A DNA stretch of 14,711 nt, from positions 1-14,711 of IMG/VR virus record IMGVR_UViG_2778261349_000009. One strand, 5' to 3'. The position numbers and the translations under genes were made by a program. Shown here in pieces: positions 6,166 to 14,711 of this stretch. How positions within the stretch are numbered: position 1 is the stretch's first letter; every line of letters begins with the position of its first letter. This DNA comes from a virus. Its lineage: Duplodnaviria; Heunggongvirae; Uroviricota; Caudoviricetes. Below the pieces are notes generated by a model. The model saw nothing but the letters and a program-made list of their open reading frames with translations, did not search any database and was not told the origin of the DNA.

Positions 6166-6266
6166 ATACACATAAATATTAACTTGATTTTAGTGTATTC
6201 GATCCTTTTGAAACTTGCATGTTAATTTATTCTTGATGTATTCTTGATTTGTAAAGTTAATATTGG
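6166..6266. promoter_or_regulatory. Immunity-region operator/promoter cluster (OR/PR/PRM-like)
   Basis: Roughly 130-bp A/T-rich divergent intergenic region containing AACTTGATTTT (6181..6191), the direct repeat TATTCTTGAT twice (6228..6237 and 6239..6248, 11-bp period), inverted repeat TACAC…GTGTA (6166..6197) and several -10-like hexamers (TAATAT at 6258..6263). Exact PR and PRM hexamers could not be assigned unambiguously. Confidence 0.5.
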
Positions 6267-7819: not shown

Positions 7820-8182
7820 ATGGCTACGATCCCCGCACATCCATATCTCAAAATCGAGGTCGTCAACGGCAGAGCCGTTATATTCTCCCTGTATGTCGCC
7901 TGTCACTTTAAGCGCATGCATAAGAATATCATCGATCGAATCGAATATCTCAACTGCTCACGCGAATTTCTCACCCGCAACTTTATTCCCGGCACTTATC
8001 GCGCCTATGGCGATTCAGTGCGTGGTTATTACATCACCCGTGATGGTCTGATGATGCTACAGCTTGGGTTAAGTCTGCGCACCATGCGGTACTACGAGAG
8101 CTGTATTGACGCACTCCATGAGGTTGAAACCGTCCAGGGTCACTCCGTGTCCCGTCGTAATCAACGGGAGGTACGCCCATGA
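7820..8182 (+). CDS. Rha family phage regulatory protein (120 aa)
   Basis: Internal ATG at 7820 of the 285-aa track ORF, with excellent SD AAGGAGG 8 nt upstream. Sequence …HFKRMHKNIIDRIEYLNCSREFLTRNFIPGTYRAYGDSVRGYYITRDGLMMLQLGLS… matches the conserved Rha-domain pattern (K.H.NVL.DI..L.CS.EF...NF....Y.D..G...Y.ITRDGF..L). Confidence 0.7.
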   Translation: MATIPAHPYLKIEVVNGRAVIFSLYVACHFKRMHKNIIDRIEYLNCSREFLTRNFIPGTYRAYGDSVRGYYITRDGLMMLQLGLSLRTMRYYESCIDALHEVETVQGHSVSRRNQREVRP

Positions 8183-8373
8183 TTAGTTACGAAATCATCA
8201 TCTCCACTGCGGAATACAGAAACGATGTATCAGTTCGCACGGATGTATCTGTCTGGCACCGTCGCTATAAATCCAGAAAAACGGCAGAACTGAAAGCGGC
8301 AGAGATGTGTGAAACCATCTCAATGAAAGGTAGCCCGGTTAAATACGTAACTACGGCGGAGGTGCGTCCATGA
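8179..8373 (+). CDS. Hypothetical small protein (64 aa)
   Basis: Start overlaps the stop of the Rha gene (ATGA), implying translational coupling. No recognisable motif. Confidence 0.45.
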   Translation: MISYEIIISTAEYRNDVSVRTDVSVWHRRYKSRKTAELKAAEMCETISMKGSPVKYVTTAEVRP

Positions 8374-8594
8374 TCCGCCACATCGTTAATTTCCTGTATC
8401 ACCGATACAACCATTGCCCCCGTGTGGGGCAGTGGTTCACCACCAGCAATGGACACGTTCTGCGGGTTTGCCTGGTCAATACAGAAAGCCAGAAGGTTGT
8501 CTGCCAGGTTCAGGGACGTACTCATACCCTGAGTTATCCGCTGGTGGCGTTTCAGTCCGGAAAAATGTTTAAGCGTCTGGGAGGTGCCGTGTGA
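8370..8594 (+). CDS. Hypothetical small protein (74 aa), Cys/His-containing
   Basis: ATGA overlap with the upstream ORF. Contains H..H.C…C…C spacing that could bind zinc. No family recognised. Confidence 0.45.
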   Translation: MIRHIVNFLYHRYNHCPRVGQWFTTSNGHVLRVCLVNTESQKVVCQVQGRTHTLSYPLVAFQSGKMFKRLGGAV

Positions 8595-8917
8595 TTTGTA
8601 AATTAACGCCTGAAAAAAAAGCGCTCAATAAGAGTTCAAGGCTGCTTTTATCTTATTTGCAAAATGCTTCAGGTGAGCAGGGTTTTGTGGAAATTTCTCT
8701 TCTGGAATTGTCCGCAGCTCTTGGCTTATGCCGTAACACAATCACAAACGCTACGGCATTACTCGAAGATCTTGGCGTTGTCACTGTTTCCAGGGGGAGA
8801 AGGAATAAAACGAAAAGTGGAAAGGAAAGTGCAGGGAAAAATATTTACAGGTTGATCCAGTCAGCGACCAATAATAAGGACTACGCCATAGTCATGCCGC
8901 GTAAGGAGGTCGTATGA
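8591..8917 (+). CDS. Putative HTH/winged-helix DNA-binding protein (108 aa)
   Basis: GTG start overlapping the upstream stop (GTGA). HTH-like segment …FVEISLLELSAALGLCRNTITNATALLEDLGVVTV… Contains an A8 homopolymer at 8616..8623 within codons 8-10. Confidence 0.5.
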   Translation: MICKLTPEKKALNKSSRLLLSYLQNASGEQGFVEISLLELSAALGLCRNTITNATALLEDLGVVTVSRGRRNKTKSGKESAGKNIYRLIQSATNNKDYAIVMPRKEVV

Positions 8918-9906
8918 GTCGTTACGCTCCTACACCGGAGGTTATGGCTATTGGTCAAATTAATATTTCCGGCAATGTCACACCGCCATCCTGGTGGAAA
9001 CATATCCAGCTACCCAGTGGGCGTCCAGATGCGACTGCCATTGCGCTGCTTTCAGAGATTGTTTACTGGTATCGCCCGACAGAAGTCAGGGATGAGCATA
9101 CAGGGGCTTTACTGGGATATCGCAAGCGTTTTCAGAGTGACAAGCTGCAAAGAAGCTATCAGGCGTTTGCTGAGCAGTTTGGCTTTGGGAAAAGGGAAAC
9201 CGCAGATGCGCTGAAGCGTCTTCGTGATGCCGGGTTTATTACTCTGGATTTACGCACGGTGGAAATGCTCGATGGGGTGAAATGCAGCAATATTTTGTTT
9301 GTCGGGATCAACCCACAGGCAATTGCTGCCATCACCACACCTTCTTCTGTTTCGCCAGAAAGTAACAGCAATAATGCAATCAGCGATACAGCTATTACGT
9401 TAAAACGGAACACCCCCCAACGTCATAACGGAACAGGGGATACGCCGAATGTTGATACAAATACAGAGATTACTACAGAGATTACAACGGAGACTAAAAA
9501 CACTATTGGCGCATCCGCTGACGCGTCTGCACCAGCGCGTTCTGCCAGACAGGAATATTCACCGGAATTTGAGCAGGCCTGGCAGGAATACCCCAAACGT
9601 GCTGGTGGTAATTCCAAGTCAGCAGCTTTCAAAGCCTGGAAAGCCCGAATCAGGGAAGGTGTGACACCAGAAACCATGCTCAACGGTGTGAAACGCTATG
9701 CCGCCTGGGTGCGTGTCTCAGGAAATATCGGCACCCAGTTTGTGAAGCAGGCGTCGACGTTCTTTGGCCCCGATCGACACTTTGACGAATCCTGGCAACA
9801 GCCTGCCGTTCCCGGAGGTGGGCGGCAAAGACAGGTCGATGTTCTGTCTGGCCTTGGTGCCATGTCTGACAAATTCGGTAAATCCAGCGACAAACTGACA
9901 TTCTGA
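8914..9906 (+). CDS. Replication initiation protein (lambda O-like role; N-terminal winged-helix, C-terminal domain, linker with tandem repeats)
   Basis: 330-aa ORF immediately upstream of and coupled to the DnaC-like gene. N-terminal DNA-binding-like domain, low-complexity linker (…DTNTEITTEITTETKNT…), conserved-looking C-terminal domain (…EYSPEFEQAWQEYPKRAGGNSKSAAFKAWKARI…FDESWQ). Function inferred from position and architecture. Confidence 0.6.
   Translation: MSRYAPTPEVMAIGQINISGNVTPPSWWKHIQLPSGRPDATAIALLSEIVYWYRPTEVRDEHTGALLGYRKRFQSDKLQRSYQAFAEQFGFGKRETADALKRLRDAGFITLDLRTVEMLDGVKCSNILFVGINPQAIAAITTPSSVSPESNSNNAISDTAITLKRNTPQRHNGTGDTPNVDTNTEITTEITTETKNTIGASADASAPARSARQEYSPEFEQAWQEYPKRAGGNSKSAAFKAWKARIREGVTPETMLNGVKRYAAWVRVSGNIGTQFVKQASTFFGPDRHFDESWQQPAVPGGGRQRQVDVLSGLGAMSDKFGKSSDKLTF
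9461..9496. repeat. Iteron-like tandem repeats inside the initiator gene (candidate ori)
   Basis: Imperfect 12-bp tandem repeats starting at 9462 (acagagattact, acagagattaca, acggagact), in the interdomain linker of the initiator gene, the same location as ori-lambda iterons within gene O. Confidence 0.4.
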
Positions 9907-9916
9907 GGTGACAGCG

Positions 9917-10795
9917 ATGATGACGTTTAACCTGCGTGAACAACAAACAAGACTACAGGCGCGGATGGATGAGTTACGGGCAGAGATTGCATTTGCTCAG
10001 AAGGGCGAAAAACCATGGCCTTATCGTTCCTGCTGGATGCGTGAAGGGCGCGGGTGTTGCGAAAAACATGGCGAATACCACACACATATTCTGGTGTGGA
10101 GCGATCGTAATGGCGAGGACAGAGAAAAAATTTCATGCTGCCCTGACTGCTTGATAGCTGAGGCCAACGATTTGACCATGGAGCTGTCGTCCCTCAAGGC
10201 GGAAGAACTGACTGATAACGCCGGAATTGCTCTGCGTTTTCGGGACTGCGAGTTTGATAATTATCTGGAGGTTAATCCTGACGCAGCCAGAAATCTTGCG
10301 GCCTGTCGCCGCTATGCGGAGAACTGGCCAGATATGCTGGAGAACGGTACCAGTCTTGTTATGACCGGCAGTTGCGGTACCGGGAAAAATCATCTGGCGG
10401 TATCAATGGCAAAACACATCATCCGTAACTATCTGGCCAGTGTGGAGATCACCGACGTGATGCGCCTTACCCGTGCTGTGAAAAACTGCTGGCGGAATGA
10501 CAGTGAAAAAACAGCGGATGACGTCATTGAGCATTATGCGTCACTGGATTTGCTGATCATCGACGAAGTCGGCGTTCAGTTTGGCAGTGCGGCTGAAATG
10601 GCCATTTTGCAGGAAATTATCAATGCCCGGTATGAGGGTATTTTGCCAACTATCTTGATCAGCAACCTTTCACCGGAAGAATTGTGGGCGTTCATCAGTC
10701 CCCGGATTGCCGACAGGATCACCAATGGCGGGCGCAACTGGTTGTCGTTTAACTGGCCCAGCTACCGTTCTCGTATCGGAGGTGTTGCCGCATGA
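9917..10795 (+). CDS. DnaC/IstB-like AAA+ helicase loader with N-terminal Cys/His cluster
   Basis: Walker A (GSCGTGKNHLAVSMAKH) and Walker B (LLIIDEVG). N-terminal CWMREGRGCCEKHGEYHTHILVW…CCPDC is zinc-ribbon-like. Start set to the ATG at 9917 (SD GAGGTG 7 nt upstream) rather than the GTG at 9908. Confidence 0.85.
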   Translation: MMTFNLREQQTRLQARMDELRAEIAFAQKGEKPWPYRSCWMREGRGCCEKHGEYHTHILVWSDRNGEDREKISCCPDCLIAEANDLTMELSSLKAEELTDNAGIALRFRDCEFDNYLEVNPDAARNLAACRRYAENWPDMLENGTSLVMTGSCGTGKNHLAVSMAKHIIRNYLASVEITDVMRLTRAVKNCWRNDSEKTADDVIEHYASLDLLIIDEVGVQFGSAAEMAILQEIINARYEGILPTILISNLSPEELWAFISPRIADRITNGGRNWLSFNWPSYRSRIGGVAA

Positions 10796-12192
10796 CCAGC
10801 CAGAACACCCCGGCATGGCGTAACGATGACCTGGAAGGCGCTGTCATTGGCGCGTTTTTTCTGCGTGGGGCTGATCCGGAAGTGATGGATATTCTGGCCA
10901 CATTGTCGGCGGACGTTTTTTCTGCACGACAGTACCGGGATATTTACGCGGGAATTTGCAGACAGGCCCGTGTATCCGGCGTCATTGACCCCGTACTGCT
11001 GTGCAATGAGATGCCGGAACTTGCCCCGGTGATTACCGACACCGGACGCAAAACCTGGGTGAAGTCTTCACTGGAGCACTATGTCGCAGCGTTGCGGCGT
11101 AATGCCGCACTGCGCGATGCAGAAAAAACACTGACTGAAGCATTACAGAATTTACGTGATGCGTATACCTGTGAAGCAGCCGAGGATGCCCTGAAGGATG
11201 CGCAGAACATGATGGCCTCACTGTCGACCGGAAAGGGCGTCATTCAGCCGGTTCACATTGATGATGTCCTTCCGGAAGTGGTCGACCGTGTTGAATGCCG
11301 CAATCAGGGACTGGAGAAATCCAGGGCGCTGATGACCGGTATTGATGAACTGGACGCAAAAACGGGCGGTATGGAGCCAGGCGACCTGGTATTCATTGCG
11401 GCTCGTCCTTCGATGGGGAAAACCGAACTTGCGCTGGATATCATCGACAAGGTGACTGAGCAGGGGCATGGCGTGCTTCTGTTCACCATGGAGATGGCGA
11501 ACATCCAGATTGGTGAACGTATGGTGTCTGCAGCAGGGGGAATGCCGGTATCCCGTCTTAAGTCTGTTGCCCGTTTTGAAGACGAAGACTGGGCACGTTT
11601 CTCACAGGGCGTGGGACGAATGACGGGGCGTAATATCTGGATGGTGGACCAGGCAAACCTGACCATTGATGAGATATGTGCAACCACGAGGCACCACCGG
11701 ATGAAACACCCGGAAACGGCGCTGGTGGTGGTCGATTACCTCGGCCTGATTAAAACCCGCAGCACGGGGCGTCACGACCTTGCTGTGGGGGAAATCTCAA
11801 AGGGACTAAAAAGCCTGGCAAAATCCGGCGGTTTTCCGCTGATTGCTCTGAGCCAGCTCTCCCGCGGTGTGGAATCCAGACCCAATAAACGCCCCATGAA
11901 CTCGGACCTGAAAAACTCAGGGGAAATAGAGGCGGATGCAGACATCATTCTGATGCTTTACAGGGATGAGGTGTACAACCCGGAGACACAGGCGAGAGGC
12001 ATAGCAGAAATCAACATCACGAAACAGCGTAATGGCACGCTGGGTACCATTTACCGGCGTTTTCATAACGGGCATTTTCTGCCTGTGGACCAGGAGAGTG
12101 CCCGGATTCTTTCCACTCCCATGACGCCGGGCAATCCGCGCAGATACAGCAATAACCGCATGTCGGGTAGTAAAACGGAGCGTTTATTTTGA
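10792..12192 (+). CDS. DnaB-type replicative DNA helicase (phage-encoded)
   Basis: 466-aa ORF. Walker A (IAARPSMGKTELALDI), Walker B (VVVDYLGLI), RecA-like C-terminal motifs (SQLSRGVESRPNKRPMNSDLKNSGEIEADADIILMLYRDEVY; ITKQRNGTLG). ATGA overlap with the loader gene. Confidence 0.9.
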   Translation: MTSQNTPAWRNDDLEGAVIGAFFLRGADPEVMDILATLSADVFSARQYRDIYAGICRQARVSGVIDPVLLCNEMPELAPVITDTGRKTWVKSSLEHYVAALRRNAALRDAEKTLTEALQNLRDAYTCEAAEDALKDAQNMMASLSTGKGVIQPVHIDDVLPEVVDRVECRNQGLEKSRALMTGIDELDAKTGGMEPGDLVFIAARPSMGKTELALDIIDKVTEQGHGVLLFTMEMANIQIGERMVSAAGGMPVSRLKSVARFEDEDWARFSQGVGRMTGRNIWMVDQANLTIDEICATTRHHRMKHPETALVVVDYLGLIKTRSTGRHDLAVGEISKGLKSLAKSGGFPLIALSQLSRGVESRPNKRPMNSDLKNSGEIEADADIILMLYRDEVYNPETQARGIAEINITKQRNGTLGTIYRRFHNGHFLPVDQESARILSTPMTPGNPRRYSNNRMSGSKTERLF

Positions 12193-14450: not shown

Positions 14451-14711
14451 ATGCTTAATACTGTAAAAATATCCAGTTGTGAGTTAATCAACGCTGATTG
14501 CCTGGAATTTATCCAGACCTTACCGGAAAACTCTGTCGATCTGATAGTCACAGACCCGCCATACTTTAAAGTGAAGCCCGAGGGCTGGGATAACCAGTGG
14601 AAGGGCGACGATGATTACCTGAAGTGGCTGGACCAGTGTCTGGCGCAGTTCTGGCGGGTGCTGAAACCTGCCGGAAGTCTTTACCTGTTCTGTGGCCATC
14701 GCCTGGCATCT
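14451..14711 (+). CDS. DNA methyltransferase, beta-class N6-adenine/N4-cytosine type (5' partial, continues beyond window)
   Basis: Hand-translated open frame to the window end: MLNTVKISSCELINADCLEFIQTLPENSVDLIVTDPPYFKVKPEGWDNQW…LKPAGSLYLFCGHRLAS. Motif IV (TDPPY) near the N-terminus is typical of beta-class amino-methyltransferases. Absent from the ORF track because there is no stop in the window. Confidence 0.8.
   Translation, partial: MLNTVKISSCELINADCLEFIQTLPENSVDLIVTDPPYFKVKPEGWDNQWKGDDDYLKWLDQCLAQFWRVLKPAGSLYLFCGHRLAS

Follow-up and report, generated by a model that had tools for sequence, protein, structure and literature searches.

A candidate bipartite replication origin in the linker-coding part of the initiator gene of a Shiga toxin prophage

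The stretch of DNA considered here (the window) is the 14,711-nucleotide (nt) Caudoviricetes record IMGVR_UViG_2778261349_000009 from IMG/VR, which is 100% identical to the Shiga toxin (Stx) 2a prophage of Escherichia coli 00-3076 adjoining mlrA. It encodes a 330-amino acid (aa) replication initiator, of which E. coli 00-3076 has a 100% identical copy; comparative analysis indicates that positions 9397-9498 within this gene are probably the replication origin of the phage. The origin is likely bipartite, consisting of phased 15-mers and a 12-mer array embedded in the part of the gene that codes for the initiator's linker. The two to three 15-mers, 22-23 base pairs (bp) apart, would be the likely double-strand iterons of the winged-helix N-terminal domain (N-domain) of the initiator; the head-to-tail 12-mers just downstream may serve as the site of duplex opening or as a second class of initiator site. 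Opening of the 12-mers by the bound initiator could proceed with or without sequence-specific contacts, as for the 13-mers of E. coli oriC and RK2 oriV, and the next step, recruitment of the DnaC-like loader and DnaB-like helicase whose genes follow directly, would fall to the C-terminal domain (C-domain).

The 12-mer array and the phased 15-mers

The repeats of the window are listed below; the 12-mers were scored with a cross-species matrix built from other species, and offsets are counted from the first 12-mer.

9397..9411, plus strand: 15-mer ACGTTAAAACGGAAC, candidate iteron 1; 0 mismatches to ACGTTnAAACGKAAC, offset -66 as in relatives, read TLKRN
9420..9434, plus strand: 15-mer ACGTCATAACGGAAC, candidate iteron 2; 2 mismatches, offset -43 as in relatives, read QRHNG
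9442..9456, plus strand: degenerate third 15-mer ACGCCGAATGTTGAT at the -21 position; weak, below the matrix threshold
9463..9474, plus strand: 12-mer unit 1, ACAGAGATTACT; 19.0 bits (maximum 19.1)
9475..9486, plus strand: 12-mer unit 2, ACAGAGATTACA; 17.5 bits
9487..9498, plus strand: 12-mer unit 3, degenerate, ACGGAGACTAAA; 9.7 bits, invariant in 41 unique close relatives

Tandem Repeats Finder reports the array at 9462-9493 with a period of 12, 2.7 copies, 90% matches and a score of 50. Head-to-tail 12-bp repeats had been noticed in an earlier inspection of the letters without database searches (the sequence-only reading), which placed their start at 9462, one base early; the repeats themselves are real and occupy 9463-9498. 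They encode T184-T194 (TEITTEITTET) of the initiator, and both the translation and structural modeling agree with the earlier placement of this peptide between two domains: the AlphaFold2 model (25 relatives) features a winged-helix N-domain at aa 1-144 with a predicted local distance difference test (pLDDT) of 84-97, a disordered linker at aa 145-212 (pLDDT <35) that contains the array, and a helical C-domain at aa 213-297. The proposed equivalence in position to the lambda origin inside gene O is upheld by this interdomain location.

A perfect adjacent duplication of a 12-mer is expected about 0.001 times by chance in 14.7 kilobases (kb) (14711 x 4^-12), and a matrix scan of the whole window finds nothing above 13.3 bits beyond 9463 and 9475. 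Sequences with up to two mismatches to the 12-mer number 2 in the window against 0.85 expected, which alone is not significant; the significance of the array therefore derives from adjacency and from the comparative data, not from the bare 12-mer count. The array is the least stable 40-mer within 8591-12192 (free energy, dG, -44.5; next -47.1), and its A+T content across 61 loci lies 11.6 points above that of its surroundings. In Megablast comparisons with 'replication protein O' genes from other Stx phages, the homologous stretch opens precisely at 9463 or, just past the array, at 9502/9504, and the edge of the array is a mosaic junction between phages.

The 15-mers lie just upstream, outside the interval 9457-9500 to which the sequence-only reading was directed, and were missed by it. 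A repeat search finds ACGTTAAAACGGAACA (9397) and ACGTCATAACGGAACA (9420), read TLKRNT and QRHNGT; their spacing of 23 bp places the two copies in different reading frames. The consensus ACGTTnAAACGKAAC, derived from other species, matches the window at 9397 and 9420 only, against 0.13 matches expected, and the sole common polymorphism inside the 9420 copy (A/G at 9425) falls on the 'n' of the consensus. Together with the degenerate copy at 9442, the repeats are spaced 23 and 22 bp and stand between the two initiator domains, an arrangement of the lambda type. The -21 position, at which the window has its weak copy, holds a strong 15-mer in 20 relatives; Rosenbergiella (L090) and Marinomonas (L097) display a sequence similar to the window copy, ACGCCGAAA..., there. 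Across the family the 15-mer ACGTTnAAACGKrAs occurs at offsets of -21, -43/-44, -65 to -67, -87/-88 and -110, with 84 sites in the 200 nt before the array versus 0 in two control windows. The gaps between neighboring copies are 22 bp (34/52) or 23 bp (11/52) in most cases, and up to six copies per locus are found in Gammaproteobacteria, Brevibacillus, Bacillaceae, Thermoanaerobacterales and others.

Two further pairs of sequences lie downstream of the array. The 12-nt inverted repeat CACCAGCGCGTT / AACGTGCTGGTG (9530-9541 / 9596-9607; 92% complementary, 54-nt spacer) begins approximately 30 bp beyond the 12-mers; in lambda, too, a palindrome stands to the right of the A/T-rich region. Where the C-domain starts, GCCAGACAGGAATA (9544-9557) and GCCTGGCAGGAATA (9577-9590) stand 33 nt apart and in frame (RQEY, WQEY); this pair is present in the window-type, EH2201-type and P27-type genes examined, and not in mEp460 or ST64B.

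Conservation at the DNA level and the tie to the initiator N-domain

In IMG/VR, every one of 80 close relatives of the initiator gene has TEIT units: most have two, 11 loci have three, and others have one or four. Variation of the repeat number among related prophages, which the sequence-only reading had thought worth checking, is therefore found (1-4 copies in about 80 loci); absence of the repeats from close initiator genes, which it had regarded as contrary evidence, is not seen in any of these loci, and at least one 12-mer copy occurs in 76/80 loci of a scan of distant relatives that took one genome per species. A protein search with aa 1-205 retrieves relatives from Escherichia, Salmonella, Citrobacter, Yersinia, Serratia and Pectobacterium, and further ones from Proteus, Morganella, Providencia, Arsenophonus and Marinomonas. 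The linker end ...T(Y/N)TE(I/N/T)TTE(I/T)TTE... is present in essentially all full-length relatives and is followed by at least four unrelated C-domains; the repeat thus goes with the N-domain, independent of the C-domain. At 34-60% identity the N-domain extends to Bacillota, Chloroflexota, Cyanobacteria, Rickettsiales, Atribacterota and Thermodesulfobacteriota, and the same linker peptide follows it in 60/80 species loci, from Gammaproteobacteria and these six groups, which cover at least seven phyla. The plasmid homologs from Protochlamydia and Deinococcus have no clear 12-mer array. A 16-kb plasmid of Vagococcus, considered as a sole-replicon test for the initiator, was uninformative due to the presence of another Rep gene.

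Across species the 12-mer unit has the consensus ACARAGAnTACt, and its conservation is that of a DNA sequence. When codon columns are anchored on the peptide alone (n=60 loci), the third positions are near-invariant (T 59/60, A 57/60, G 53/60, T 57/60, A 48/60, T 51/60) and conservation is lowest at the second position of the I/N/T codon (A30 C10 G2 T18). Codon choice in the array departs from the background of the same genes: GAG is used in 66/77 cases versus 0.38 (p 1e-17), ACA/ACT in 241/273 versus 0.55 (p 2e-32), AAG in 29/32 versus 0.34, ATT in 50/56 versus 0.44 and AAT in 74/78 versus 0.62. The 330 nt after the N-domain contain 173 copies of the 12-mer, a density of 6.6 per kb versus 0.22 per kb elsewhere; all are on the gene strand, and 23 of them are in another frame (e.g. 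L162, TAC AGA GAA TAC AAC AGA GAT; Herpetosiphon, ACA CAG AGA CTT). Among 41 unique E. coli-type genes the segment 9388-9508 has four substituted sites, at codon position 1 or 2 and none synonymous, whereas the flanking domains vary mostly at third positions; changes in length are gains or losses of whole 12-nt units only. The fixed third positions, the free second position, the out-of-frame copies and the lack of synonymous change together indicate selection on the DNA and not on the peptide.

These data bear on the view that the region is an ordinary low-complexity linker, in which a slippage repeat is kept, if at all, for its peptide or as a homology patch for module exchange. The variable copy number (1-4 in close relatives), the location at a mosaic junction (9463 or 9502/9504) and the predicted disorder of the peptide are in keeping with such a linker; the codon pattern and out-of-frame copies across phyla and the population sample run counter to it and may be said to have largely refuted it already, and slippage and junction use are compatible with an origin without replacing it. 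This explanation is accordingly given very little credence. Part of an apparent protein motif may even be origin DNA: proteins with a DUF6017-type C-domain (P0017-P0019; Lachnospiraceae L129, L138, L156, L161, L162, L165) show '(R/K)(D/E)Y' after TNTEN.., and this tripeptide is the next 12-mer unit in a shifted frame.

The conserved sequence might instead act at the RNA level, through a structure in the mRNA, as a binding site for a protein or as a signal for translation. This explanation would agree with the constant location of the motif on the coding strand; it is nevertheless the most improbable of those considered, as there is no Rfam match at E up to 1, the repeats are direct and lack self-complementarity, and the 22-23-nt phasing of the 15-mers corresponds to two turns of duplex DNA.

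The tie to the initiator was also approached from the DNA side, through a search of IMG/VR by pattern alone (two 12-mer units preceded by AT), which returned at least 120 loci, 117 of them with enough upstream sequence. A window-type N-domain lies directly upstream on the same strand in 90/117 and an EH2201-type N-domain, likewise directly upstream and on the same strand, in 19/117; the remaining 8/117 have a third type of winged-helix N-domain with an 'HYW' motif. In all 117 usable viral loci of the sample, therefore, the motif stands just downstream of a superfamily initiator N-domain. The elements, their phasing, their conservation at the DNA level and this exclusive tie to the initiator superfamily are direct observations. 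The HYW type (L203, L205, L218, L222, L276, L282, L288, L290) reads ...LQQ(V/L)HYWL...WVYNT...FPFWS..., then HTE(S/N/T)TTE(S/T)T with the same 12-mers, and points to a broader superfamily of 'YW' winged-helix initiators.

In other Stx phages, the EH2201-type 'O' protein (L001) has its C-domain and 12-mers in common with the window; the two N-domains have no BLAST similarity, and hhalign aligns them weakly over an 'FYW' helix and the helix-turn-helix (HTH). Relatives of the EH2201 type in Proteus, Providencia and others always show TE(I/N)TTE after the N-domain, with various C-domains. The phased repeats of this type differ in sequence (for example, three copies of GAAAGCGCATTTCGGG in L172 and three of CGCGGAnnnGGGAAA in L001) and retain the 23-bp phasing, ending approximately 20 bp before the same 12-mer array. 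The EH2201-type 12-mers were initially taken as an argument against N-domain specificity; this was dropped, as the EH2201 family has the array everywhere along with phased repeats of its own. Phased repeats thus change with the type of N-domain, as is the case for iterons and their DNA-binding domains, with the 12-mer array common to at least three N-domain subfamilies. The 15-mers are the better candidates for winged-helix sites.

The converse assignment, in which the 12-mers themselves are the iterons and double-strand sites of the winged-helix N-domain and the 15-mers are auxiliary, is possible but doubtful. The 12-mers are the most conserved and widespread element (76/80 species loci and 117/117 motif-first loci with a YW-type domain), their copies run head to tail in a single orientation, and window-type initiators hardly vary in their recognition helix, as would fit an invariant target. 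Opposed to this are the occurrence of the same 12-mer after three N-domain subfamilies whose HTHs lack BLAST likeness and align weakly by hhalign, the fact that it is the phased repeats and not the 12-mers that change with subfamily, the little room that 12-bp head-to-tail spacing leaves for a winged helix on each unit, and the match in position between the array and the A/T-rich segment of lambda. No variation is seen across the family at K93, R94, R102 and R114, residues of the recognition helix (K93-G107) and wing, which fits a conserved DNA target and is silent on which class of repeat is bound. The lambda logic of the sequence-only reading therefore holds insofar as the array belongs to a DNA-level cis element tied to the N-domain; its assignment of the 12-mers as the iterons bound by that domain carries the doubt just stated. 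A broader proposal, also tentative, is that the 12-mer array is a sequence-specific, hitherto undescribed, pan-bacterial origin module of phages, prophages and some plasmids across Proteobacteria, Bacillota, Chloroflexota and Cyanobacteria; it would be read by a conserved non-HTH surface of the 'YW' winged-helix initiators, perhaps as single-stranded DNA, with fast-evolving, type-specific iterons alongside and with the lambda A/T-rich segment as its decayed relative.

Several points weigh against an origin at 9397-9498. The A+T content of the 12-mer array is no more than about 65%, a search of 61 loci for a consistent A/T-rich tract downstream of it finds none, and no DnaA box (up to 1 mismatch) is present within 8000-10600. 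Good copies in the window number only two for each class of repeat, 15-mers and 12-mers alike, below the number in classical origins, and the 15-mers are detected by matrix in only 32/62 family loci, about half. The 12-mer and 15-mer matrices were trained on the same loci against which they were scanned; the training has no bearing on the phasing, the control windows or the counts anchored on the peptide. For every member of the family, origin activity, like binding and unwinding, is inferred, and a DNA element to which the initiator binds could have a role in autoregulation and not in initiation. GATC sites show no clustering within 8000-10600.

An operator for autoregulation of the initiator, or for control of the downstream genes as a roadblock, is the form that such a non-origin function would take. 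The element is tied to the initiator family and lies inside a transcribed early operon, and the comparative evidence establishes a function at the DNA level linked to the N-domain without specifying which. An operator is nonetheless considered unlikely: the element lies within the gene, in every case between the DNA-binding domain and the domain that recruits the partner, two-turn phased repeats lie beside the least stable DNA, and the arrangement is colinear with the lambda origin. Furthermore, the phage needs an origin, and a repeat search of 8100-10100, the sole stretch scanned, shows no other repeat cluster in or beside the replication genes.

The replication gene cluster and related modules

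The initiator gene is the first of three replication genes in the window, which are listed here with the genes that precede them.

Ahead of the cro-like gene: integrase, then cI-like repressor (5454-6173, minus strand)
Between the cI-like repressor and the initiator: cro-like gene, then Rha/Ash regulators and small open reading frames (ORFs)
8914..9906, plus strand: replication initiator, 330 aa; PHROG match phrog_270, E 1.9e-78
9908..10795, plus strand: DnaC-like helicase loader; phrog_50, E 1.6e-88; IstB_IS21 and Bac_DnaA domains
10792..12192, plus strand: DnaB-like replicative helicase; DnaB_C, E 3.2e-74; phrog_19

The cro-Rha-Ash order is similar to that of the Eru7/Eru9 phage classes, and the DnaC-like loader is the presumed partner of the initiator C-domain. 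The initiator has no match in Pfam (E up to 0.01), NCBIfam or PDB sequences, and 25 members of its family retrieve only sub-threshold generic HTH models from Pfam; neither RepA_N (PF06970) nor Phage_rep_org_N (PF09681) is matched by the window initiator or by these 25 proteins, and a Pfam match to Phage_rep_O (PF04492) is likewise lacking for the window initiator. Foldseek comparison of the N-domain model with the PDB returns generic winged helices including the N-domain of DnaD, none significant; the winged-helix fold of the modeled N-domain is clear.

A 108-aa winged-HTH ORF (8591-8917, plus strand) overlaps the initiator start (ATGA, 8914-8917) and weakly matches the N-terminal part of phrog_270 in PHROG (E 3e-8); it is missing from the EH2201-type module. 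It was considered as a paralog of the N-domain and rejected, its similarity to the initiator family profile being that of generic HTHs with an hhalign probability of 1.7%. Two other tandem repeats are found in the window. An 11-bp repeat, TATTCTTGATG (6228-6248; 1.9 copies, 100% match), probably made up of operator sites, sits between the cI-like and cro-like genes, where the DNA of the window is at its least stable; a 12-bp repeat, AGTGTCTGGCGC (14623-14656; 2.9 copies, 82% matches), lies in the 5' part of a DNA methyltransferase gene, so labeled in the annotation of the source genome.

Initiators with the same C-domain and unrelated N-domains, namely phiP27 L17, SfV/mEp460 and ST64B sb42, are without the 12-mer and have linker repeats of their own. 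The linker of phiP27 gene L17 (L002, 2327-2499) contains five copies of TGACCCKTCAGAWTCTG at spacings of 15, 15, 33 and 32 nt, the last copy being out of frame with the others (readings FDPSDSG and LTLQNLD), and a tandem pair of the 24-bp unit TTYAAAACATGATCCGCAAG; these repeats are probably that phage's own origin. The linkers of the mEp460/SfV type (L085, 2287-2445) and of ST64B sb42 (L086) contain four to five GGTGCAGGAGATTCAC-like repeats and also, immediately ahead of the shared C-domain, a short tandem array of 12-nt units, GAACCAGTCAAA / GAACCAGTCAAT. The mEp460/SfV and ST64B initiators thus have the same architecture as that of the window with different sequences.

Comparison with known origins

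Motif and peptide string searches of the literature return unrelated primers only, and no account of the 12-mer motif, or of where this replication module of Stx phages has its origin, was found in the searchable literature. The papers examined on Eru types make no mention of iterons or origins, and the paper defining these types states that nothing is known about the replication of the phages (PMC8951638). The segment 9397-9498 provides a precise and testable candidate origin of approximately 100 bp for a replication module that is common in Shiga toxin phages. Stx phage replication drives the dosage of the toxin gene. As a DNA signature, ACARAGAnTACt repeated at 12 nt and preceded by 22-23-bp phased repeats could help to annotate candidate origins in prophages across phyla, given its record of 117/117 usable viral loci. 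In the array, nature also offers a clean case of a cis element taking precedence over the genetic code, with several frames in use, frozen synonymous sites and drifting amino acids; if the 12-mers are a shared unwinding or second-site module, they would offer general insight into duplex opening by winged-helix initiators.

The lambda origin is the nearest parallel. Both the lambda origin and the candidate origin here are located where the initiator gene (gene O in lambda) encodes the linker, and both initiators combine a winged-helix N-domain with a partner-binding C-domain. Lambda has four annotated iterons spaced 20, 24 and 23 bp, comparable to the 22-23-bp phased repeats of the window; its iterons are followed by an A/T-rich segment and by annotated hybrid crossover points at 39157 and 39165, where the window has DNA of low stability and the domain-exchange junction at 9463. 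The two differ in that the window initiator is not a Phage_rep_O member, with only weak PHROG matches to O-like proteins (E 1e-6), and in that the lambda iteron sequence is unrelated to the 15-mers; lambda features a plain A/T-rich tract in place of an ordered 12-mer array conserved across phyla and N-domain subfamilies, and its partner is P, in contrast to the DnaC-like loader and phage DnaB-like helicase here. The A/T-rich segment of lambda (39121-39174; L294, 522-575) contains faint matches to the 12-mer, TCAGAGAATTCT (11.5 bits), ACAAAAGACACT and GAAAAGATTATT, and encodes DTITKEKRKDYSSEN, recalling TNTEITTE..KDY; the matches may represent a decayed relative or chance.

E. coli oriC and RK2 oriV have tandem A/T-rich 13-mers in the unwinding element, beside DnaA boxes or iterons. 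The 12-mers share with them short A/T-rich units that run head to tail in one orientation, number 3-4 copies and directly flank the sites, here candidate ones, at which the initiator binds double-stranded DNA; however, the unit here is 12 nt instead of 13, unrelated in sequence, located inside a coding region and approximately 65% A+T. The resemblance is one of position, tandem arrangement and low stability only.

DnaD is comparable at the level of its N-domain (PDB 2V79), which is among the top fold matches, and several sources label relatives of the initiator 'DnaD'; the match to 2v79_B is not significant, however (Foldseek E 0.14, template modeling (TM) scores 0.19/0.47), and there is no sequence match to the PDB. 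DnaD is not known to carry an origin in its own gene.

RepA_N plasmids such as pAD1 and pSK41, and rep2009 of the lactococcal phage Tuc2009, have origin repeats in the middle of the rep gene. As in the window, these repeats occupy a central and poorly conserved part, flanked by a conserved N-domain and a C-domain that is specific to host or partner; there is no sequence match to RepA_N or Phage_rep_org_N, and both the repeats and the architecture differ. An origin inside the linker of the initiator gene is a classical principle, known from lambda, P22, SPP1 and the RepA_N plasmids; the unusual feature here is an ordered array of 12-mers whose nucleotide sequence is retained across phyla and initiator subfamilies.

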